DNA of 64,000 nt from an uncultured Nitrospiraceae bacterium (GCA_963727775.1 CAVSHB010000004.1:192001-256000); one strand, 5' to 3'; positions 34,032-47,078 are shown, counted from the stretch's first letter. The notes: generated by a model from the letters alone, not told the origin. A program made the numbers and translations.

Positions 34032-36158
34032 ATGGATATTAATGCAAAACTTCAATTAGCTCTTGAACATTATCAATCTGGAACTTTACAGCAAGCAGAA
34101 CATATTTGCAGAAAGATTTTAAAAAAACACCCAAACAATGTTGATGCCCTTCACTTTCTGGGTGTAATATGTTACCAACGTGGATATTATGATCTTGCCA
34201 TAAAGAGTATCAAGAAGGCTTTAGAAATAGACCCGAACTTTGCGGATGCATATAACAATCTAGGAAACATTTTTCAGGAGAAAAAAGAACTTAATGAAGC
34301 CATATCTTGTTACCGAAAAGCTCTAAACATTAATCCAACGCTTGCTAAAACTCATTATAATTTGGGGATTGCTCTCCAAGATACAGAAAAAATAGATGAG
34401 GCTATAATTTGTTATCAAAATGCTTTGGAACTAAATTTAAATATTTTTGGATTATATAACAATCTCGGATTTGCTTTAGAGAAGAAGGGTAAATTAGACG
34501 AAGCTATCACTTGTTATCAGAAAGCTCTAAAGCTTAACCCAGATTTCTCCGATGCATATAATAATCTTGGAAATGCACTTAAAGAAAAAGGACAACTTGA
34601 CGAAGCTATTGATAACTATCAAAAAGCGATAGACCTTAAGCCAGATTTTACTAACGCATATGTTAATCTTGGAAATGCTCTAAAAGAACAGTGCAAAGAA
34701 GATGAAGCTATTGTGGTATATGATAGAGCCCTCCTGGTTGCCCCTAATAATTTTATGGCACGGCTTGCAAAGTGTTTCTCGCAGATTCCGATAATTTATC
34801 CAGTCCCGGGAAATATAAAAATCTGCCGTAATCGCTACTACGAAGAACTCACAAAATTAAGAGATGCAATTTCATTCGAAGAACCACAATATATCCAAGC
34901 AGCAGCTGAAGCAGTTGGAAGTCATCAACCTTTCTATTTAGCATACCAGGGGTTTAATGATCGCGAGTTACAACATATTTACGGTGCCTTGGTATGTCGA
35001 ATTATGTCTTTGCGTTATCCCGAGTTTGCTGACCGTCCTGGCATGCCTCGGCATTTGTCCGGTGAACCTTTGCGTGTTGGTTTTGTTTCTGGTTTTTTTA
35101 ATCTGCATTCCAATTGGAAAATCCCAATTAAAGGTTGGATCGAGAACATAAACAAACAACGGTTCAGGCTTTATGGCTACTACACGGGAAAAAAGAAAGA
35201 TATAGCGACTGAAGATGCTAGGAAATCTTTTGCCTGTTTTGTTGAGGACGTGCAGTCCTTCGAAGAATTGTGCAAGACCATCAGGGAAGATAATCTTCAT
35301 ATATTGATTTATCCTGAAGTCGGTATGGACCCAATGACTGTAAGGCTTGCCTCTCTTAGACTGGCTACGATTCAATGTACTTCATGGGGGCATCCTGATA
35401 CCTCAGGTCTTCCAAGTATCGACTACTTTCTTAGCAGCGATCTCATGGAACCCTCCGGTGCTGAAGAGCATTACACTGAAAAGCTTATTCGCTTACCCAA
35501 CTTGTCCATCTATTACACTCCGTTAGATTTCCCCCTTGCCACTGTTAATCGTGAAACCTTAGGTTTGCGCCAAAAGTCTATTCTTTATCTTTGCTGTCAG
35601 TCACTATTCAAGTATCTGCCCCAGTATGATGAGATATATCCGCGCATTGCAAAAGAAATCAAAGATTGTCAGTTCTTGTTTATTTCTAATAAAAGCAGCT
35701 GTGCTACTGAACAATTCAGATTGCGTATCAATAAATCGTTTGAAGACTTTGGTCTGAAAGCCGATGATCATGTTGTCTTTCTGCCGCGACTTGATGATAG
35801 TAGATATGGTGCAATTAACTATCTTTCTGATGTCTACCTTGACAGCATAGGTTGGTCAGGATGCAACTCCACTTTCGAGGCTATAGCTCATAATTTACCA
35901 ATATTGACTCTCCCTGGTGAATTAATGCGTGGACGGCACAGTGCAGCGATTCTGACTATGATGAATATACAGGAGACAATTGCTTCTTCAATCGATGAAT
36001 ATGTTGAGATCGCTGTACGTTTGGGAGCGGATTCAGTGTGGAGGAAACAGATATCAGATAAAATTGCACGGAGCAAAGGGTGCGTATATCAAGATAAAAC
36101 GTGCATTACGGCTCTTGAGGCCTTTCTTGAAAAGGTGGCGGAAGAAGGGATAGGATAG
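34032..36158 (+). CDS. TPR-GT41 glycosyltransferase, paralog C
   Basis: Same architecture and motifs as 26722..28851. Confidence 0.9.
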   Translation: MDINAKLQLALEHYQSGTLQQAEHICRKILKKHPNNVDALHFLGVICYQRGYYDLAIKSIKKALEIDPNFADAYNNLGNIFQEKKELNEAISCYRKALNINPTLAKTHYNLGIALQDTEKIDEAIICYQNALELNLNIFGLYNNLGFALEKKGKLDEAITCYQKALKLNPDFSDAYNNLGNALKEKGQLDEAIDNYQKAIDLKPDFTNAYVNLGNALKEQCKEDEAIVVYDRALLVAPNNFMARLAKCFSQIPIIYPVPGNIKICRNRYYEELTKLRDAISFEEPQYIQAAAEAVGSHQPFYLAYQGFNDRELQHIYGALVCRIMSLRYPEFADRPGMPRHLSGEPLRVGFVSGFFNLHSNWKIPIKGWIENINKQRFRLYGYYTGKKKDIATEDARKSFACFVEDVQSFEELCKTIREDNLHILIYPEVGMDPMTVRLASLRLATIQCTSWGHPDTSGLPSIDYFLSSDLMEPSGAEEHYTEKLIRLPNLSIYYTPLDFPLATVNRETLGLRQKSILYLCCQSLFKYLPQYDEIYPRIAKEIKDCQFLFISNKSSCATEQFRLRINKSFEDFGLKADDHVVFLPRLDDSRYGAINYLSDVYLDSIGWSGCNSTFEAIAHNLPILTLPGELMRGRHSAAILTMMNIQETIASSIDEYVEIAVRLGADSVWRKQISDKIARSKGCVYQDKTCITALEAFLEKVAEEGIG

Positions 36159-37064: not shown

Positions 37065-38004
37065 ATTTAATTATAGACAATAACTACAAAAATATCCTGT
37101 GACTTCAAAATATTTTACCGGTTTAATGTGCGTATTACTCTGGGGTGTAATATTTATCAGCACAATAAGCCTTTATCTGTATAACACTGCTTCCTTGTAG
37201 TCATCAAGCGCTAATTTTTTAATAATATTGTATATTATACTTATAATTAATCGGATAAAAAGATTGACAATGAATCTCGAGGAGACAATAAAATTAGCTT
37301 TTGAACATTATCAAGCAGGAGATTTTTTACAAGCAGAATTAGCATGTAAAAAAATATTGGAAATTCAGTCAGATAATGGTCAAATCCTTCACCTTTTAGG
37401 TTTAATATATTATGAGCGTGGAAACTATGATTTGGCTATGGATTATTTAACAGATGCACTTGTTTCTATGCCGAAAAATGAAGATTTATATTATGATATT
37501 GGCAATGTTTTTCAAGAAAAAAACCAACTTGATGAAGCTTTAACCTATTATCAAAAAGTGCTACAGTTAAATCCTGTCTATATTAACGCATACAACAACA
37601 TTGGGATTATTTATCATGACAAAGGGCAACTTGACGAAGCTATAGCTACCTATCAAAAAGCTTTGCGGATAGATGGGAATAACGATATTGTTAATAACAA
37701 TATAGGACTTGTTTTTCAGGAAAAAGGACAACTTGATGAAGCTATAATGTACTATGAAAGAGCAATAAAAAAAAATCCTTATTATGCTGTTGCTTATTAT
37801 AATATAGGTATTATCTTTTTTAGGAAAAAACAATTCGATAAAGCTCTACATTCTTTTATAAAAGTTATACAAATTGATCCCACTTTTACTGATGTATATT
37901 TTAATCTTGGTGATGTATATTTTAATCTTAGCAAGCTTGATGATGCTGTAAAATGTTATAAAAAAACAATCTCCAATAATTCAGATTACATCCCGGCCTA
38001 TCTT

Positions 38005-39387
38005 GATAGCGTAAGATCAATTCTGCAAATATGAATCAGGGTATAATTCTCAATGGAAAAAGCAATCTCTCAAAGAGAGAAAGGAGAATTATACCCATGA
38101 GAAGAATTTTATCAAAGAAGGCGAAAAAAGTCATTGAGGATGGAGTGCAGGAGTTTATGGCGATGCCCCCGTTAGCGGAGTTGACGAGGATCGGAGCGAG
38201 GATGATGTTAGAGTCGGCGATGGAAGAAGAAGTGACGGCATATCTTCAGAGAGACTATTATGAGAGGAATGCCTGCGCTAAAGGAAGCCGGAGTGGATCG
38301 AAGCCCAGAACCGTGAAGATCGGTAGCGGTGATATAGGGCTAAAGATGCCGCAGGTAAGGAATGCCGGTGGCCCATTTCATTCCCGGATATTGCCGCCAC
38401 GGATGACCCAGATGGATGAAATACAGGAAATCATCCCTCTTTTGTATATGAACGGCCTGTCCAGCAGGAAGGTAAAGAAAGCTGTGGGTAAACTCATAGG
38501 CAAGAAAGGCCTGAGCCATCAGAATGTCATAAGGATCAGCGGCAGGATCGTCGATGAGTTCAATGCATGGAAGAAGCGGGACTTATCGATGCTGCAGGTG
38601 GTGTATCTTGTTCTGGACGGCGTACGGATGGGAGTAAGGGCCGGGACCAAGGAGAAAGAGGCGGTGCTGGTGGCCTGGGCGTTTCTGGAGGACGGCAGCC
38701 GGGAGCTCGTGGGCGTGTCCCTTGGCAACAGTGAATCGTACAATGCGTGGAAAGGTTTTCTGGAGGATCTCACGAAACGGGGCATAAGTGAACCAATGCT
38801 CACGGTTATCGATGGCTGTCCCGGCCTTATCAAGGCGGTGGATGAAGTCTTCCCTGAATCAGACAAACAGCGCTGCACGAAGCACAGGACTGAAAACGTG
38901 CTGGATAAAGTACTGGAACAGGACAAGGCATCAGTAAAAGAGTCAGTAAGGAAGGTGTTTTACGCCTCGACCTATGAGCACGCAAAGGAGGCCGTGGAAA
39001 TGTTCAAGAAGAAGTGGCGCATGAAATATCCTTCGGCAGTGGAATGCCTGACTGAAAATATAGAAGACTGTCTGACCTATTACAAATATCCTTACCAGCA
39101 CTGGCTTAGAATTCGGACGACCAATATAGTGGAGAGGAGCTTCAAGGAGGTGAAGCGAAGGGTAAAGGTAGCAGGCCGGTTTCAGAAGGAGGAGCGTGCG
39201 CTCACCATGGTTTACTGGCAGCTCCACGAACTTAGATGGAACGGTGTAAGCATGACCAAGGAGGCAAAGGCAATCCTTACGAGGATCCGGGCATCAAGGA
39301 TGCAAAGGGTTGCGGCATAATCGTATCAATGAAAACCCTTGAGAATAAAGCCCTGAAGAGAATTTACAGAAAAGACTTGACACTGTC
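38005..39387 (+). mobile_element. IS256-family insertion sequence, copy 2
   Basis: Same ends and protein as copy 1; 8-bp TSD CCTATCTT (37997-38004, 39388-39395). Confidence 0.95.
38031..39320 (+). CDS. IS256/Mutator-type transposase
   Basis: Identical translation to 31411..32700. Confidence 0.93.
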   Translation: MNQGIILNGKSNLSKRERRIIPMRRILSKKAKKVIEDGVQEFMAMPPLAELTRIGARMMLESAMEEEVTAYLQRDYYERNACAKGSRSGSKPRTVKIGSGDIGLKMPQVRNAGGPFHSRILPPRMTQMDEIQEIIPLLYMNGLSSRKVKKAVGKLIGKKGLSHQNVIRISGRIVDEFNAWKKRDLSMLQVVYLVLDGVRMGVRAGTKEKEAVLVAWAFLEDGSRELVGVSLGNSESYNAWKGFLEDLTKRGISEPMLTVIDGCPGLIKAVDEVFPESDKQRCTKHRTENVLDKVLEQDKASVKESVRKVFYASTYEHAKEAVEMFKKKWRMKYPSAVECLTENIEDCLTYYKYPYQHWLRIRTTNIVERSFKEVKRRVKVAGRFQKEERALTMVYWQLHELRWNGVSMTKEAKAILTRIRASRMQRVAA

Positions 39388-40954
39388 CCTATCTTCGATT
39401 AGGGTTGATTTTAAGTTATCAAGGGAGAAACGATGAAGCAATAAATATTTACGACCAAGTTTTGAAAATAAGGCCCAATTTTTTTAAAGCATACTATTTG
39501 CGATGCATGTCTCAACTTCCAGCCATTTATCCTGATCAATCGAGCATTCAGATTTCACGTATCAGATATCTTGAAGAACTTAATACACTACATAAGATTC
39601 TTTCTTTAGAAACCGAGCAGGATATTGAAGAAGCATCTCAAGCTATTGGCACTCAGCAACCTTTCTTTTTAGCATACCAAGGGTTAAATGATCGTGATCT
39701 GCAGCAACTATATGGTGATTTAGTTTCTAGAATTATGAAAACAAGATTTCCTCAATGGGCTTATCGACCCAATATGCCTCCAGTTTCGTCTGAAGGGCTT
39801 TTAAGGGTTGGCATAGTATCAGCCTTTTTTTGGGATCATTCCAATTGGAAGATTCCAATCAAAGGATGGGTTAAGAATTTAAATAAAAAGCATTTTGAAT
39901 TATATGGATATTATACGGGCAAATGCAAAGATAAGGAAACAGAGGACGCGAGACATTGTTTTACTCACTTTTATGAGGATATAGACTCTTTTGAAAATCT
40001 TTGCCAGATTATTTACGAGAATAATCTTCATGTTCTTATTTATCCTGAAATAGGAATGGACCCAATAACAGTAAGGCTTGCATCTTTAAGACTATCACCT
40101 GTGCAATGTACATCATGGGGACATCCTAATACATCAGGTCTCCCGACTATTGATTATTTTCTTAGCAGTGATCTGATGGAGCCCCCTTATGCTGAGCATC
40201 ATTATACTGAACAACTGGTCCGTTTACCCAATCTTTCAATATGCTACACTCCAACAGATGTTATTCCAGATGAAACAAATCGAGAAAAACTTGGACTACG
40301 TCCAAATTCGATCCTTTATCTTTGCTGTCAAGCACTTTATAAATATTTACCTCAATATGATGATATATATCCGCGTATCGCCCAACAGATTGAAGATTGT
40401 CAATTCCTTTTTATTTCCTGCCATCTCAGCAATTGGGTGACCGAGAAATTTCGTTTGAGGCTCGAAAAAGTATTCAAAATGTATAATCTCAACGCCGATG
40501 ATTATATAGTATTTCTCCCACGTCTTGATCAGGAACAATATTATGCTGTCAATCGTCTTTCTGATATATACCTGGACAGTATTGGCTGGTCAGGATGTAA
40601 CACCACCTTGGAAGCTATTGCCCATAATTTACCAATCCTGACTCTGCCCGGTAAATTAATGCGCGGAAGGCATAGCTCAGCAATTCTTAAAATGATGGGG
40701 ATATCAGATACCGTTGCCTCTGAACTTGATGAATATGTTGAAAAGGCAGTCCGTTTGGGTCTGGATAAAGAATGGCGCAAACAGATATCTGAAAAAGTTG
40801 CTGCAAAGAAGCATCTTGTTTATCGAGATAAAACCTGTATTACTGCCCTTGAGGATTTTCTTGTTGCAGTAGTACAAGAAAAGCTCAATTAAGTTATCAA
40901 TGATCTTTAACAAAAAATATCTTCCATTTTGTTGCATATTTGATCTGTTAATAT

Positions 40955-41476
40955 TCAATTTTCAGCGGGAGTCACTTGTGCCTGGTCAATATGCTGTGTA
41001 TTTAATGTTTGCCAGCGTGCGTCATGGGCAAGACGAATTGCTGCGGCTCTTGTTGGGGTACAACCAATGGTACTGGCAAGCTCTCTGTCATAAATGTTTC
41101 GATGTTCCCAGTCATCCAGCATAATAGGAGTACCACTTGGATACGAAGTCAGCAGGTTGCCAAGCCGTAAAATCCGAAGAACAAGAGCATGCATTGTCGA
41201 TACGTGAACTTGAAGTGCAGTTGTGGCACATAGTTGGTTGCTGCAGAAAGTCTGTATTCTTGAACGGAGTTCAGCGCATGCGGCACGGGTAAAGGAAATT
41301 ACATAAACATTGTCAGAATTTGCACCGTTATTAAGTAAGTCAGCTACCCTTTTTTCGATTGTATAAGTTTTACCAGTGCCTGGCCCAGCGACCAGTCGTA
41401 TCTGACGTGCGCTGTCTCTTGCTGCCACCCATTGTTGTTGCTCTGCTGCCGCTCTTTGTGTTGCTGTTATAGGCAT
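40955..41476 (-). pseudogene. Truncated UvrD/Rep-family (SF1A) helicase, N-terminal part only
   Basis: Walker A VAGPGTGKT, ISFTRAA, VSTMHA; ends at 173 aa before any motif II. Confidence 0.75.
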
Positions 41477-41722
41477 AACAAGTCTTCTCTCTTAAGTTTT
41501 ACCTTTGGATTTCTGAGTTGTCTTTTATTCCTTGGGACTGTTAATTATACAAAGCCTTTATGCATTTTAACAGATTTAGATATTGTTAGTTTAGGAGAGA
41601 GATCTCTTGTCCCCACAGGCACGCTTGGTAAAGAGGGTTTCTTTTGAAAAGCGATAGTGCTTGCGAGATGTCAGCAATGCGGAGCTTGCTATATTGTTGT
41701 AGAGTTAGGCCTTGTTAAAGAA

Positions 41723-41793
41723 GGCTATACTCTTTCTTGATTCAGACCAATGTGCGAGTTGGTTAAATCCAAACCAAAGAAAGGAGTATAGCC
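41723..41793 (+). promoter_or_regulatory. Inverted repeat that sequesters the IS110 transposase SD
   Basis: GGCTATACTCTTTCT (41723-41737) pairs with AGAAAGGAGTATAGCC (41778-41793), which lies directly before the ATG. Confidence 0.65.
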
Positions 41794-43056
41794 ATGAAGA
41801 AGAGTAAAACAAAAAAGTTTAAAGTAGTCAATGGTAGAACGATGATTGTGACAGCTGATATGGGAAAGGATAGACATTTTGGATACTGGCGCTGTCCGGA
41901 CGGAAGCGATGTGAAGCCCTTTGCCTTCTGGAACAACGGCAGGGGTTTCCAAGAGTTCTGGGATCGTGTATCTTATGCCAAAAAGCTCCATAACATCGAA
42001 GATATTGTTTTTGGATACGAGTCCACCGGGCCGTATGCCGAACCTCTTGTTCATTTCATGCGTGCGAGAGGCGTACACATGGTACAAGTAAGCCCTATGC
42101 ACACTAAGAGGCTTAAGGAGCTTCAGGGTAATTCGCCGAACAAGACCGACCAGAAAGACCCAAAGGTTATCGCTGATATTATGGCACTTGGCCACGCCCT
42201 GACTGTAGTGATCCCGGAAGGTCCAGCGGCCGAACTCAGGAGGCTCACTCAGGCCAGGGAAAGGAGCAACGAGCGTTATGTATCCCTGGTGAACCAGCTC
42301 CAGAGCTTGCTTGCGATTATCTTTCCTGAGTTTTTGCAGGTAATGAAGGATGTAAAGACGTTGACTGCCCGATATCTCCTTGCGCAGTGCCCAGCACCCA
42401 AGGATATTGTCGCGTACGGTCTTGATAATTTGAGTGCAACGATCAATAAGGTCAGCCGCGGAAAGCTGAAGGAAGATCGCGCCAAGGCCCTCTATGAGGC
42501 TGCAACAGCTTCTATAGGTGTAACCGAAGGCATGACGAGCATTATACGTGAGATAAGAGAACTTCTTATCGCCATGGACGCTGCTGAGTCCTTTACCGGG
42601 GATCTGGAAAAGGAAATGGGGTATTATCTGAAGCAGATTCCCTACAGTGGCTCGATCCTCTCGATAAAGGGGATTAAAGAGGTTACCACTGCCGGTCTTA
42701 TCGGTGAAGTGGGTGATTTTCGGAAGTTTCAAACCCTCTCCGAGATCCTAAAGCTCGCAGGGCTGGACCTTTATGAGATCAGTTCTGGCCAATACAAGGG
42801 GAAGCGACGCATATCTAAGCGAGGCCGTCACCTGCTGCGTAAACTTTTGTACTTTGCCTCGCTCAACACAGTCCGCAGAGGTGGAATAATGCACGATCAA
42901 TATCAAAAGTACCTTGAGCGGGGCATGCCTAAGACCAAGGCGCTGATCGCCGTAGCAAGAAAACTTCTTGGAATCATATTTGCTGTTGTGCGTGACCAAA
43001 GTGTATACAAAAAAGATTTCTCTATAGTCTCACTTCAATACCAGGAGGCTGCATAA
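41794..43056 (+). CDS. IS110-family DEDD recombinase/transposase
   Basis: ADMGKDRH, GYESTGPY, KTDQKD (RuvC DEDD); SIKGIKEVT, AGLD..EISSG (catalytic Ser region), ISKRG, ALIAVARKL. Confidence 0.95.
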   Translation: MKKSKTKKFKVVNGRTMIVTADMGKDRHFGYWRCPDGSDVKPFAFWNNGRGFQEFWDRVSYAKKLHNIEDIVFGYESTGPYAEPLVHFMRARGVHMVQVSPMHTKRLKELQGNSPNKTDQKDPKVIADIMALGHALTVVIPEGPAAELRRLTQARERSNERYVSLVNQLQSLLAIIFPEFLQVMKDVKTLTARYLLAQCPAPKDIVAYGLDNLSATINKVSRGKLKEDRAKALYEAATASIGVTEGMTSIIREIRELLIAMDAAESFTGDLEKEMGYYLKQIPYSGSILSIKGIKEVTTAGLIGEVGDFRKFQTLSEILKLAGLDLYEISSGQYKGKRRISKRGRHLLRKLLYFASLNTVRRGGIMHDQYQKYLERGMPKTKALIAVARKLLGIIFAVVRDQSVYKKDFSIVSLQYQEAA

Positions 43057-43060
43057 CTTA

Positions 43061-43234
43061 TAGTATTGGCGTGTAAGCGGGGAGATTACCGACCTGATAC
43101 CTAAGGCGGCTGAGCCGACCTTCATGCGGAGCTTGTAACTCCCCGCTTGCACCTTAGTCTCGATTAAGCAAGGTCAGGGCTCTGTTGAGACCCTCGAATT
43201 ACCAGTGTCAGGCAAGGTGCTACACCAAAGACTA
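43061..43234 (+). ncRNA. Predicted bridge RNA/seekRNA of the IS110 element (target- and donor-binding loops)
   Basis: Outer stem 43061-43075/43221-43234 and two stem-internal loop-hairpin arms. Loop strands match junction sequences: ATGCGGAGCTTG 43124-43135 = 41677-41688; ACCAGT 43201-43206 = 43557-43562; AGCAAG 43167-43172 = reverse complement of 41685-41690. Confidence 0.75.
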
Positions 43235-43948
43235 AAGTGACTTCCTCCTAATGGAGATGGAAGTGAGAAGGTTGATATAAGGTTAAGTGAAAGGAGCCAA
43301 GAGGAGGCATAAAAAAGAGAAACGCCGAATCCAGGGGATACCGTAATATGGGTCATGCTGAGATAATCGATCCTATAGCTTTCTACGAAGCCGCTTTTTC
43401 AGAATTGGCTCTCAAACATGCAGAATGGATTACGTAATGAGACAAGGGATCTGGGGGCAAAGAACGAAGCAGAAACCATTGAAGCCAGGAAACCTTAGTA
43501 GTGGCTTGTCTCTATCAGAGGGGAGTTACTCCGTAAAAAGTTCTTGACAATAATAAACCAGTAGAAGGTGGACTGAGCATGGTTAGAATATCGCCTCCCG
43601 CAAGTTAGTTCTAACAAAAATCATTCCTCCTTAAACTTCAAAGTAATTTCATCTGTTCTTCATAATGCTGTAACTTTGGAACTATATACTTTTTTACAAC
43701 TAATAAAATCCTGAAACTTTTCAACGGAGTGAAATTAACAGAATGACGGAAAGATTTCGGCTTCGAGTTCATTCGGGATGGGCAGTAATTTTGAGGTATG
43801 GTTCCCTCTTAACCAAAGTTGGGAAGCCATCCGGGAAAAGGAAGTCCACCCTTCTGTTCCGATATAACTGGGCAGAATGGCCCAAAAAAGTTTAGCAGTA
43901 TTTGAACCTGCAAAAACTTTTCTCAATCAGAAAGGAGTTTTTTAAATC

Positions 43949-44173
43949 ATGGCAAAAGAAATATTAAACACGAACGGTATTGCCTGGACACTTGCGATGT
44001 TCAAACTTGCGTCAAAGGCGGTTTCTATGCAGTCGGGCAACATCCTGGAAGTGGTCGGGACCAATCAGGCTTTTGAGAGGGACATCCGGACATGGTGCGA
44101 CAGGTTAAACAAAAAGCTCCTGTTTATTAAGAGTGAAAATGAAGACGGCAAGAGATGTCAGATACTGTTCTGA
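43949..44173 (+). CDS. TusA/SirA-family protein lacking the CPxP cysteine
   Basis: Size and pattern (MQSGNILEV, FERDIRTWC) fit the TusA fold; GIAWTLA in place of GLxCPxP; AAAGGAG SD. Confidence 0.65.
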   Translation: MAKEILNTNGIAWTLAMFKLASKAVSMQSGNILEVVGTNQAFERDIRTWCDRLNKKLLFIKSENEDGKRCQILF

Positions 44174-44240
44174 TTTTTTCAGCTTACGCAAATATGATTT
44201 TTGACTAATCAAATAACATCAAATTATAAGGAGAAAATTT

Positions 44241-44642
44241 ATGGAAGAAACAAAGAAAAAAGTAGTGATCATCGACGATGACGAAAAACTTCTCACAACC
44301 GCGAAAGAGTTGCTCGAAGAAGAAGGATATGACGTTGTGACACATCAGCTTGCATTCGGTGCAACAAATTTCATCAAACAAAACAAACCTGATCTTGTAT
44401 TGCTTGATATTAATATGCCGGGGCTTTCCGGAGAGAGGTTTTCCAGGATACTCCTTTCCAACTATGAAACCAAAGACATGCCCATCGTGTTCTATTCATC
44501 GAATGATGAGGACAGTCTCAGAAGAACCGTATCGGAGTATGGCGCGAGAGGCTATATCTGCAAGGGGGACATATTCGAATTGAAGAAAAAGGTTGATTTA
44601 TATATAGGCCGGCCTTCGGATACCTGCAGAGACGGAAAATGA
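44241..44642 (+). CDS. Single-domain response regulator
   Basis: IIDDD, LVLLDINMP, IVFYSS, YICKG. Confidence 0.9.
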   Translation: MEETKKKVVIIDDDEKLLTTAKELLEEEGYDVVTHQLAFGATNFIKQNKPDLVLLDINMPGLSGERFSRILLSNYETKDMPIVFYSSNDEDSLRRTVSEYGARGYICKGDIFELKKKVDLYIGRPSDTCRDGK

Positions 44643-46474
44643 TAGCCAGTCAGCGGTGGGACATGGATAACGGTAGGCCCGTTTCTTTCTTGAAACATAA
44701 TACGTCCAGCGAGATTGAAAGGGATGAAATTCTTGAACTTCTCGATAATAATTCTTTGACCGTCCATTTTCAGCCCATTTTTTCATCAAAATCAGGATCG
44801 GTATACGGATATGAGGCATTAACAAGGATTCAAGGGGAACATACATTTAAAGATGTAAGCGACTTGTTCGCAAAAGCCAAGCTGGCAGGGACATTGTCAT
44901 CTCTCGATTCCCTTTGTCGTGAAAATACCATCAAAGAAGCTTCGATTCTCGGTATAAACAAAAAGAATGTCAATTTGTTCATTAATATATGTCCCGAGAC
45001 TCTCACCGACCCGGCCCACAGCATGAGCATTATGGAAGAGATCGCCGAAAAATGGCACATCCCGAAAGAGAAGATTGTTCTTGAAATAACAGAAGAAGGT
45101 GCTGTACACAACTATGATTTTTTCAAGGATACCGTATCTTATTGCAAAAGCAGAGGATACAGGATAGCAATCGATGATTTCGGGTCCGGTTGCGGGGGAT
45201 TAAAAATGCTTTCGATTATCGAACCCGACTTTATAAAAATAGACCGGCATTTTATATCCAATATCAATCTATCCACGATAAAGTACAATCTCGTCGATTC
45301 TGTCGTCATTGCCTGTAACAGGATCGGTATAAAGGTGATCGCTGAAGGGATAGAACGGCAGGAAGAATTAGATACAGTCCTGAACCTGGGGATAGATCTT
45401 CTCCAGGGATATTATCTCGCTGTTCCTGAACCGGTGCTGAACAGCGTGAATTCGACAATTCCCGGGATAGTTGTGCAGAGCAAGAATGCCGATAGAGAAT
45501 ATTATCTGATAAGCGATATCTCCGGCAGAGTAGAGCCTATTCAGCCTTCAGAACCTGTTATTGCTGCATTCAAGAGGTTTACTGCCGATCCTGAACTCAA
45601 ATTATTGCCTGTTGTCGAAGGAGAGCGGATTGTCGGAATCCTGCACAGGAACAGGTTCCTGGAAAACCAGGTGATCGGCAAATACGGCTTCGGCTTCGCG
45701 TTGAACACATACAAAACCGTTGCCCATCGTATGGAACACCAGTGCCTGCTTGTAGAGGCCAATACTCCCCTGGAAGAAGTTGCGCAAAGGATCCAGTCAC
45801 GAAAATCCGCTTTTATTTATGACGATATATGCGTTACAAAGAACGGAAAGTACCACGGAACAGTTGCGCTCAGGCTGCTCCTTGACGCCCTGACCGAAAG
45901 AAACCTTATCCTTGCCAAGGGGGCCAACCCCCTCACAGGGCTTCCGGGTAATGAATTCATACAGAGGGAAGTCAGCAAAAGACTGTCGCAAAATATGTAT
46001 TTCGACGTCTGTTATATCGATATAGATAATTTCAAACCCTACAATGACCATTACGGCTTTGAAAGGGGCGATTTTGTTATCACTACTTTGGCAGGGATCA
46101 TAACTGAAGCGATAGAATCGATCAGCGCAGATAAGTTTAATTTTGTGGGGCACATAGGCGGCGATGATTTCATTATCATAGCGCGTCCGCAGATTTCAAT
46201 TCCTTCATGTGAAAAGATAATATCAAAATTCAAAGACCGCCTTATAGAATTTCACAACGCGGAAGATTATCGAAACGGATTCTACAAGTCAAAGAACAGA
46301 GCCGGTAAACTGGAAAATTTTGACTTACTGTCACTTTCCATAGGAATTGTAAGCACGGAACTGTACAAAATAGAGTCATATGCTGAGCTTGCCTCTATTG
46401 CAACAGAAGTCAAGAAAGGAGCAAAGATGCAGAAAGGCTCATCCATCGTAAGAGACAGAAGAATCGGGAAATAA
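44639..46474 (+). CDS. EAL-CBS-GGDEF c-di-GMP enzyme
   Basis: FQPI, YEALTR, IDDFGSG, KIDR, AEGIE; CBS-like LPVVEGERIVG; NPLTGLPGN, DIDNFKPYND, HIGGDDF. Confidence 0.9.
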   Translation: MIASQRWDMDNGRPVSFLKHNTSSEIERDEILELLDNNSLTVHFQPIFSSKSGSVYGYEALTRIQGEHTFKDVSDLFAKAKLAGTLSSLDSLCRENTIKEASILGINKKNVNLFINICPETLTDPAHSMSIMEEIAEKWHIPKEKIVLEITEEGAVHNYDFFKDTVSYCKSRGYRIAIDDFGSGCGGLKMLSIIEPDFIKIDRHFISNINLSTIKYNLVDSVVIACNRIGIKVIAEGIERQEELDTVLNLGIDLLQGYYLAVPEPVLNSVNSTIPGIVVQSKNADREYYLISDISGRVEPIQPSEPVIAAFKRFTADPELKLLPVVEGERIVGILHRNRFLENQVIGKYGFGFALNTYKTVAHRMEHQCLLVEANTPLEEVAQRIQSRKSAFIYDDICVTKNGKYHGTVALRLLLDALTERNLILAKGANPLTGLPGNEFIQREVSKRLSQNMYFDVCYIDIDNFKPYNDHYGFERGDFVITTLAGIITEAIESISADKFNFVGHIGGDDFIIIARPQISIPSCEKIISKFKDRLIEFHNAEDYRNGFYKSKNRAGKLENFDLLSLSIGIVSTELYKIESYAELASIATEVKKGAKMQKGSSIVRDRRIGK

Positions 46475-46559
46475 TATCTACCATATTGTTAAATTTAACC
46501 TTTCTTTCATAAATTTGTAATATCCCATTGATAAAATCTTTTACCAAAGGAGGTGAATA

Positions 46560-46772
46560 ATGAATATCTACGCAGGCTATAAAGAGCAAGCAAGACTCGG
46601 CAGCAATGAGATGGGATGTCCGTACAACGGCATTAATGTGTGTATGGCCTCATTCTCATCAATGCAAATCGATAACCGGAAAAGGGAAAATTACTGCGGA
46701 ACGGACAACTTCGACAACTGCCCCATATTCTTGTCAAAAGTATTAAGAAAAGTGGCGACGCAGGTAACATAA
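46560..46772 (+). CDS. Small 4-Cys protein
   Basis: AAGGAGGTG SD; CPY-x5-C-x17-C-x7-CPIF. Confidence 0.7.
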   Translation: MNIYAGYKEQARLGSNEMGCPYNGINVCMASFSSMQIDNRKRENYCGTDNFDNCPIFLSKVLRKVATQVT

Positions 46773-46838
46773 AATTCATCTTTTTGTAATATTCCTGTAA
46801 TAGAAGCCGTGTTACTCTATAAAAAAAGGAGTTTAATT

Positions 46839-47078
46839 ATGCACCTGGAAAGAATTTTGACAACATGTCCTTACCTGGCTGGAAGTCCTGAAGGTTCAAT
46901 ATGCCAGGCTGCAGTCACATTCGTAAGAAATATCGAGGATATCGATCCCGATAACTGCATCAGCAGACATTTTGAAATGTGCGGTATTTATATTTCCAAA
47001 CTCCAAGAGATGAATATCATTCCCACTGTTCCCAATAACGTTGCTCGTATTGTCAAAAGTTTTATAGCCAAAAACTAA
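46839..47078 (+). CDS. Small 4-Cys protein (related pattern)
   Basis: AAGGAG SD before ATG 46839; CPY-x9-C-x17-C-x7-CGIY. Confidence 0.65.
   Translation: MHLERILTTCPYLAGSPEGSICQAAVTFVRNIEDIDPDNCISRHFEMCGIYISKLQEMNIIPTVPNNVARIVKSFIAKN

Follow-up and report, generated by a model that had tools for sequence, protein, structure and literature searches.

The locus described here lies in a 64,000-nucleotide stretch of DNA from an uncultured Nitrospiraceae bacterium (the window). It raises the question of whether an IS110-family element whose transposase gene is followed by a two-looped RNA is an RNA-guided recombinase and, if so, whether its AG core, its downstream RNA and its 420-residue enzyme set it apart from described systems. 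Our analysis indicates that it is very probably an RNA-guided IS110-family bridge-recombinase element with a downstream two-arm RNA, acting in an IS621-like manner with target and donor reversed. This explanation was built on the observed boundaries, copies, structure conservation, guide-flank covariation and catalytic residues.

The element, an intact IS110-family insertion of 1877 bp, occupies 41685-43559 plus one AG (Table 1). The genome contains four full copies at four different sites, all bounded by AG. Compared over 41700-43550, each of the other three is one base off the window copy, and the divergence of the four starts exactly at the AG on the left and on the right, which defines the boundaries. 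The element is recently mobile. The three further copies fix the same ends as the preliminary description, which had also placed an AG at both junctions (41683-84 and 43560-61), where the four copies agree. The motifs quoted there were all found in place, namely ATGCGGAGCTTG at 41677 and 43124, CCTGATA at 43093, AGCAAG at 43167, and ACCAGT at 43201 and 43557; by our own arithmetic, an exact 12-nt copy of the left junction within ~170 nt has a chance probability of ~1e-5. The left flank is of the T/CTG(C/T)GG type in 4/4 copies, and the left junction motif with AG is present at 72/72 loci.

The reconstructed empty sites read ATGCGG-AG-TAGAAGGTG for the window copy and the C1 - copy, ATGTGG-AG-TATCAGGTG for the C1 + copy, and CTGCGG-AG-TAGAAGGTG for the C2 copy. 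A search for empty sites, suggested beforehand, succeeded in part. Homologous sites with a single AG were detected in a paralogue on C1 of the same genome (86% across the C1 + junction), in G023 (with a guide-perfect right half), and in G010 and G063, whose sites align with the C2 junction at 76-77%. Among 40 relatives, none showed the window's site unoccupied; the upstream repeat alone matched. No unoccupied site of the consensus ATGCGG-AG-TATCAGGT is left in the genome, and the assembled contigs of four DNA runs held no circle or empty-site joint, which is evidence neither way.

Table 1. Features of the element and its flanks, in window coordinates.
Feature	Position	Strand	Remarks
Left flank	41677..41682	+	Host half-site ATGCGG, read by the 3' target guide; equals 43124-43129
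Core	41683..41684	+	AG on + = CT on -; copies diverge here
Left end, 109 bp	41685..41793	+	7-bp donor half CTTGCTA; ribosome-binding site
-10 box TATATT	41690-41695	+	Within left end
Short sub-terminal repeat, left	41692-41700	+	Within left end
IS110-family recombinase ORF, 420 aa	41794-43056	+	PF01548 + PF02371
Target-binding arm (stem, internal loop, cap hairpin)	43076..43147	+	Helices 1-3; 15/21 pairs changed on both sides
5' target guide region	43090..43100	+	C 43090, purine 43091, guide ACCTGATA 43092-43099, core-pairing C 43100
3' target guide	43124..43133	+	ATGCGG + AG + handshake CT
Donor-binding arm	43149..43220	+	Helices 4-6
5' donor guide AGCAAG	43167-43172	+	Donor-binding arm
3' donor guide ACC-AG + handshake T	43201-43205 + 43206	+	Donor-binding arm
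Extra non-coding right-end stretch, ~300 bp	43241..43543	+	Outside conserved RNA
Right end	43544..43559	+	-35 box TTGACA 43544-43549; donor half AACC
Short sub-terminal repeat, right	43547-43555	+	8/9 identical to left repeat
Second core AG	43560..43561	+	Four-copy comparison
Right flank TAGAAGGTG	43562..43570	+	Host half-site for the 5' target guide; mismatches at 43564-43565
Probable fixed G in right flank	43570	+	Base beyond guide

The sub-terminal repeat matches at 8/9 and then 10/13 positions here, and positions 1-4 and 8 alone are kept across 29 guide sets. Joining the ends brings the -35 and -10 boxes to a spacing of 17 bp in 29/29 guide sets; promoters in place were not above chance (3 found, 2.8 expected). 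Relatives have right ends of 205-506 bp and left ends of 90-133 bp. The extra right-end stretch is missing in most of them, one close relative (L145) having a similar one; as a candidate second RNA it was rejected, its fold being no better than shuffles (z = -0.19). At 43519-43528 the window carries GGGGAGTTAC, ten nucleotides fully complementary to the 3' side of the target-arm stem (43135-43144), which could compete with the stem in a long transcript or be a chance match.

The region 43057-43240 folds with z = -4.4, with 0/200 shuffles equally good. Searches of Rfam with 38000-47000 (up to E = 1) and with the C1 target repeat gave no match. An alignment of 25 sequences gave a consensus of two arms; the outer stem first described is seen in the single-sequence fold alone and drops out of this consensus. 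In the alignment, 97.3% of cells are paired and both-sided changes occur in 25 of 38 pairs (slid-partner controls, 4-12), and the scaffold C at 43090 is unchanged in 25/25 RNAs. The covariance model built from it locates the window's RNA at 43066-43240 and recovers it in held-out loci and in 5 of 60 related genomes; beside Bacillota relatives (L080, L082) the model (R1) gave no match. The structured RNA with two internal loops that belongs to the broad definition of IS110 is present here by prediction and covariation.

A genome scan provided 75 loci, of which 68 were used (7 partial or distant ones were omitted) together with the four own copies, making 72. Multi-copy sets gave motif-free support for the left boundary, and three of them for the right; where a relative had a single copy, its junctions were placed from the end motifs and not from empty alleles. 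Parsing succeeded for 59 of the 72 loci (9 of the 13 dropped were without a flank and 4 without anchors), giving the 29 guide sets of set 1. For set 2, 70 of 80 metagenome loci were parsed and only new guide sets were scored. In set 1, the 5' guide matched the right flank at 5.60 of 7 positions against 3.38 after shuffling when the better of two registers was taken (0/10000 shuffles), and at 4.85 against 2.71 in a fixed register (0/10000); the 3' guide matched the left flank at 4.12 of 5 positions against 1.82 (0/10000), and the donor-arm handshake equalled the first right-flank base in 27/29 sets (0.93 against 0.55, 1/10000), all these shuffle counts overstating certainty because the relatives are not independent. 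Set 2, to which the same reservation applies, gave 5.90 against 3.62 for the 5' guide (43 new sets), 4.48 against 2.28 for the 3' guide (50 new sets) and 0.65 against 0.43 for the handshake, the last weaker than in set 1 (0/5000 shuffles each). The covariation of loops with flanks, named in advance as a check on this element, held in 29 guide sets and was replicated in set 2; together with the conserved structure, it bears out the original call of a 3' bridge RNA and its assignment of target and donor loops, and it points to natural reprogramming of the guides among relatives.

Position by position, the identity of the 3' target guide to the flank is 0.91, 0.89, 0.88, 0.70 and 0.76, with 0.18 at position 6. 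This guide is effectively 5 nt, and the "GCA" of the target predicted earlier is unguided. Past the core in the target arm, C comes first in 66/72 guide sets and CT in 38/72. The proposal that the guides read past the core into the recombinant junction was correct for the first of the four bases concerned; the others are less well kept, and the final G of the 12-mer is a stem base. Donor guides match both ends over short lengths, 6 nt on one side and 3 nt plus the core on the other. The donor ends show almost no variation among relatives, which leaves little to compare with the guides; in L018 the donor end is changed and the donor guide is not. Where the 5' donor guide faces the core it has G or A instead of C. 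The handshake base of the donor loop varies along with the target, with ~54 matches, 4 wobbles and 14 mismatches across 72 guide sets.

A mechanism can be proposed in which circle, promoter activity, RNA ends, binding and catalysis are extrapolated from published systems. The circle would join the ends as TAAACC-AG-CTTGCTA, creating a putative sigma-70 promoter for the recombinase gene and then a bridge RNA of ~150-175 nt. The first arm would pair with both strands of ATGCGG-AG-TATCAGGT(G) and the second with the joined ends. At the 2-bp core the DEDD/serine active sites would swap strands, so that each junction keeps an AG, and one handshake base per arm would pair with partner DNA after strand exchange. 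The orientation of target and donor relative to the gene would be as in IS1111, with a long enzyme of non-IS1111 type.

In a seekRNA-type mode, by comparison, the target arm alone (~75-80 nt) would suffice, the ends being read mainly by the protein or the target arm, with the donor arm secondary. Target-loop-only RNAs are described as predominant in ISEc11-type elements and CazIS110-1 (PMC11187229, 10.1101/2025.10.25.684509), the 3' target guide plus handshake spans the entire left junction, which the target arm alone could therefore read, and no conserved outer stem links the two arms. We nevertheless consider this mode unlikely: conservation is as high in the donor arm as in the target arm, the donor loops match both ends and the donor handshake base varies with the target, and CazIS110-1 is reported to have needed the full RNA for excision and integration (10.1101/2025.10.25.684509).

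The AG core had been presented as a novelty, and it is indeed found at both junctions on the gene strand; our literature search found no paper joining bridge RNA, IS110 and an AG core, within a literature whose preprint supplements and figures may already include the clade (further sources in scope were PMC13626964, 10.64898/2026.08.14.744561 and 10.1101/2024.06.21.599552). A distinct recombinase chemistry with an AG core is nonetheless very improbable. On the - strand, the target reads CCTGATA-CT-CCGCAT and the donor TAGCAAG-CT-GGTT, the left-flank half-site ATGCGG being the "right target" in IS621 terms. The RNA then offers, in order, a 7-nt guide equal to the left target, a core C, the reverse complement of the right target, AG and two handshake bases, and the donor arm likewise. 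Seven nucleotides before CT, followed by a 3' guide made of AG plus two bases, is exactly the IS621 template, in which guide order and spacing are the same and the 3' guides themselves read AG (PMC11208160); the CT core and the handshake rule are known for IS621 (PMC11208160, PMC11208158). The "AG core" is thus the reverse complement of the IS621 CT core. An AG left junction with a 3' non-coding region also occurs in two other multi-copy IS110/IS1111 families of the genome (one of 425 aa whose repeat has 9-10 bp, the other of 375 aa whose repeat has 15 bp). The RNA location and the long enzyme, likewise put forward as new, are already in print: a 3' RNA with the same guide order is described for IS1111 elements, and IS110-type elements with a 3' non-coding region and IS110 subgroup enzymes of 395-455 aa are on record (PMC11187229). 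Given the IS621 template and these precedents, core, RNA position and enzyme length are each not new by themselves, and the mechanism itself is already published. The genome has 24 PF02371 matches, from at least eight IS110/IS1111 families.

As far as the published descriptions go, the element resembles IS621 and ISCro4 (IS622) in its two stem-internal loop-hairpin arms with the target arm first (PMC11208160, PMC11208158, 10.1101/2025.05.14.653916), in a 7-nt 5' guide, CT core and 3' guide reading AG plus handshake, and in DEDD plus serine, a short sub-terminal repeat and a circle-junction promoter. Unlike in IS621, the RNA lies 3' of the gene and its model has no conserved 5' hairpin, target and donor run the other way with respect to the gene, the enzyme has 420 aa instead of ~326 and resembles its counterpart only weakly (E 1.1e-7), the core C is missing from the 5' donor guide, and there is a probable fixed G past the guide. 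With the IS1111 seekRNA elements ISEc11, ISKpn4, ISPa11 and IS5075 it shares the 3' non-coding region, the top-strand complement preceding the bottom-strand match, the 7-bp extension outside the left repeat, the junction promoter and targets with recurring motifs; it differs in enzyme length (420 against 330-350 aa), in a repeat of ~4-5 conserved bp (8/9) against 11-13 bp, and in a simple donor loop, which is multi-loop in many IS1111 elements (PMC11187229). CazIS110-1 (10.1101/2025.10.25.684509) is alike in a ~170-nt two-loop RNA with guides matching the junctions and in being multi-copy in an environmental anaerobe.

The preliminary description rightly took the protein for an IS110 DEDD recombinase of 420 aa: it contains PF01548 and PF02371 and scores 189 bits with NCBIfam NF033542 (cut-off 140). 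Residues D22, E76, D119, D122 and S331 are invariant in 23/23 aligned homologues; a RuvC-like DEDD domain (PF01548) followed by a C-terminal PF02371 with a conserved serine is what the broad IS110 definition comprises. The definition further includes a short bounding core that the empty site has once, target guides covarying with the target halves, and handshake bases able to pair with partner DNA, and the element agrees with it in these respects too. A protein search gave 3908 matches among 8000 scored candidates. In a tree of 30 rows, whose deep branching order is uncertain, the recombinase clade (100/100) groups with long enzymes from Bacillota and with two more long ones from the same genome (97/94), and the 420-aa enzyme falls outside the clade of IS5075, IS5708 and ISEc45 (96/95). 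Members of the IS1111 group have 330-350 aa, fall inside the IS1111 clade and carry repeats of 11-13 bp (7-17 in Durrant); enzyme and sub-terminal repeat depart from this, and the layout agrees, with a 3' non-coding region and the top-strand complement first. Conversely, the IS110 group sensu Siddiquee usually has an upstream region with the bottom-strand match first, the reverse of the downstream arrangement here, although downstream exceptions are allowed for (PMC11187229); its short or absent repeat and 315-455-aa enzyme outside IS1111 are what we see. The predicted mode of action is therefore that of IS621 and the layout that of IS1111, although two features of IS1111 membership are missing.

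The nearest named relatives are of the IS650/IS653/ISChy2 type, ~430-aa Bacillota enzymes at 32-33% identity (97/94 support); these are ISfinder names in the Siddiquee source data, and the Bacillota rows were typed by eye. By eye, one such row begins like IS650 and has the N-S-P-x-K-x-D-x-K-D motif in common. In L142, from a Cytobacillus plasmid, the left junction GGGGC-AG-CAT is repeated inside the element's own 3' region (a single locus, with provisional boundaries). IS650-type elements (L142, L082) are likely to have the same architecture; our literature search, by title, found no paper on their bridge RNAs.

The target half-sites required a correction. The preliminary description had noted that CCTGATA matches the right flank at only 5/7, which is true of three of the four copies, the window's included, with two identical mismatches to the 5' guide. 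In the C1 + copy the match is 8/8: the guide 43092-43099 is a perfect 8-nt complement of its right flank TATCAGGT. Because of this complementarity, the programmed target is predicted to be ATGCGG-AG-TATCAGGT(G) and not one ending in TAGAAGG. A second RNA acting in trans on TAGAAGG was discarded, since the sole other match to the model in the genome has other guides; it belongs to a broken relative (G000 C2:272969-276063; L005, L087) of 47% identity, split by ~1.6 kb of other DNA, whose bridge RNA scores 129 bits. If the two middle target bases vary naturally, this would explain the repeated mismatch, and IS621 is reported to tolerate mismatches (10.64898/2026.08.31.748434). A tandem G.A mismatch was a weak candidate for the cause of the GA: among six double mismatches it came first by a margin of only 0.5 kcal/mol, RNA-RNA values serving as stand-in.

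The flank base just past the guide duplex is G in ~56/72 guide sets (41/53 with 7-nt guides and 15/19 with 8-nt guides), and guided flank bases are 33% G. The RNA base facing it is A or G in 67/72 sets, and the preceding base is the invariant unpaired C. This pattern suggests a probable fixed C-G pair beyond the guide, with the purine flipped out; protein read-out or common repeat ancestry of the targets could produce the same signal. On another reading, the protein picks the target, and the matches between loops and flanks arose by chance or remain from earlier duplication. This could draw on the G shared by most relatives and on the three copies carrying TAGAAGGTG instead of the guide's TATCAGGTG, yet guides and flanks vary together over 72 guide sets on a constant scaffold, and the reading is very improbable.

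Six intergenic GCGGAGTAGCAGGTG sites were found in five family genomes. Enrichment of the target motif is modest in its loose pattern (29 matches against 19 in controls); the 13-nt form gave 11 against 1, several being coding chance matches. The motif occurs in 3 of 151 genomes across the order, and eight viral matches appear unrelated. The left half of the motif is similar to the TTATGTGGAGT repeats that follow IS91-like elements in the same genome; GCGGAGTAGCAGGTG, with up to 3 mismatches, was absent within 2.6 kb behind five IS91-like transposase matches. The IS91-like elements with a tyrosine recombinase lie at C1:343855-345127, C1:20600-23400, C2:571000-573700, C3:213200-215000 and C3:339600-342000, and tandem TTATGTG(G/A)AGT repeats and scars are seen at their ends and beyond. 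The same integrase lies 230 bp past the C1 + copy and ~500 bp past the G023 empty site. Integron attC hairpins were rejected as targets (no common fold), as was an association with GxxExxY genes (only 2/59 loci beside relatives' targets). In 10/29 guide sets the guides of relatives are aimed at 8-9-bp tandem repeats, which are probably a family of small host repeats. Those of the CGCAAAGA/CACGAAGA type belong to L024-L033, L043, L054, L060 and others, and an inverted copy lies nearby in 6/29 guide sets, often ~160 bp away.

Going beyond the bridge-recombinase reading of this one element, we tentatively suggest, at somewhat less than even odds, a widespread clade of long IS110 enzymes with an IS621-like RNA in IS1111 position and orientation. 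Guide order would follow the site of the RNA and not the enzyme family; the target arm would add a non-programmable C-G pair with a flipped-out purine to a guide of 7 or 8 nt, and this copy would target a recurring intergenic motif, GCGGAGTA(TC/GA/GC)AGGTG, with a left half like the IS91-like end repeats. A published survey of 32,190 bridge RNAs in 86 models may include this clade (10.64898/2026.10.21.760802). In this clade, neither the place of the RNA nor its guide order is bound to enzymes of the IS1111 type. The element itself is a ready-annotated bridge recombinase remote from IS621; its ends are exact, and it comes with a covariance model and 72 natural guide programmes. If the fixed G is real, it would be a design rule, like a one-base PAM.

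Elsewhere in the window, an IS256/Mutator-family transposase (PF00872; 38031-39320) lies between ORFs 37228-38034 (TPR repeats) and 39405-40892, which look like the halves of one gene similar to 34032-36158. A 173-aa N-terminal stub of a UvrD-type helicase (40955-41476, - strand) starts 200 bp from the insertion site and was not cut by the IS110 element. On G000 C2, near 300468, another insertion sequence with about ten copies starts 29 bp behind the C2 copy's junction, in its right flank.
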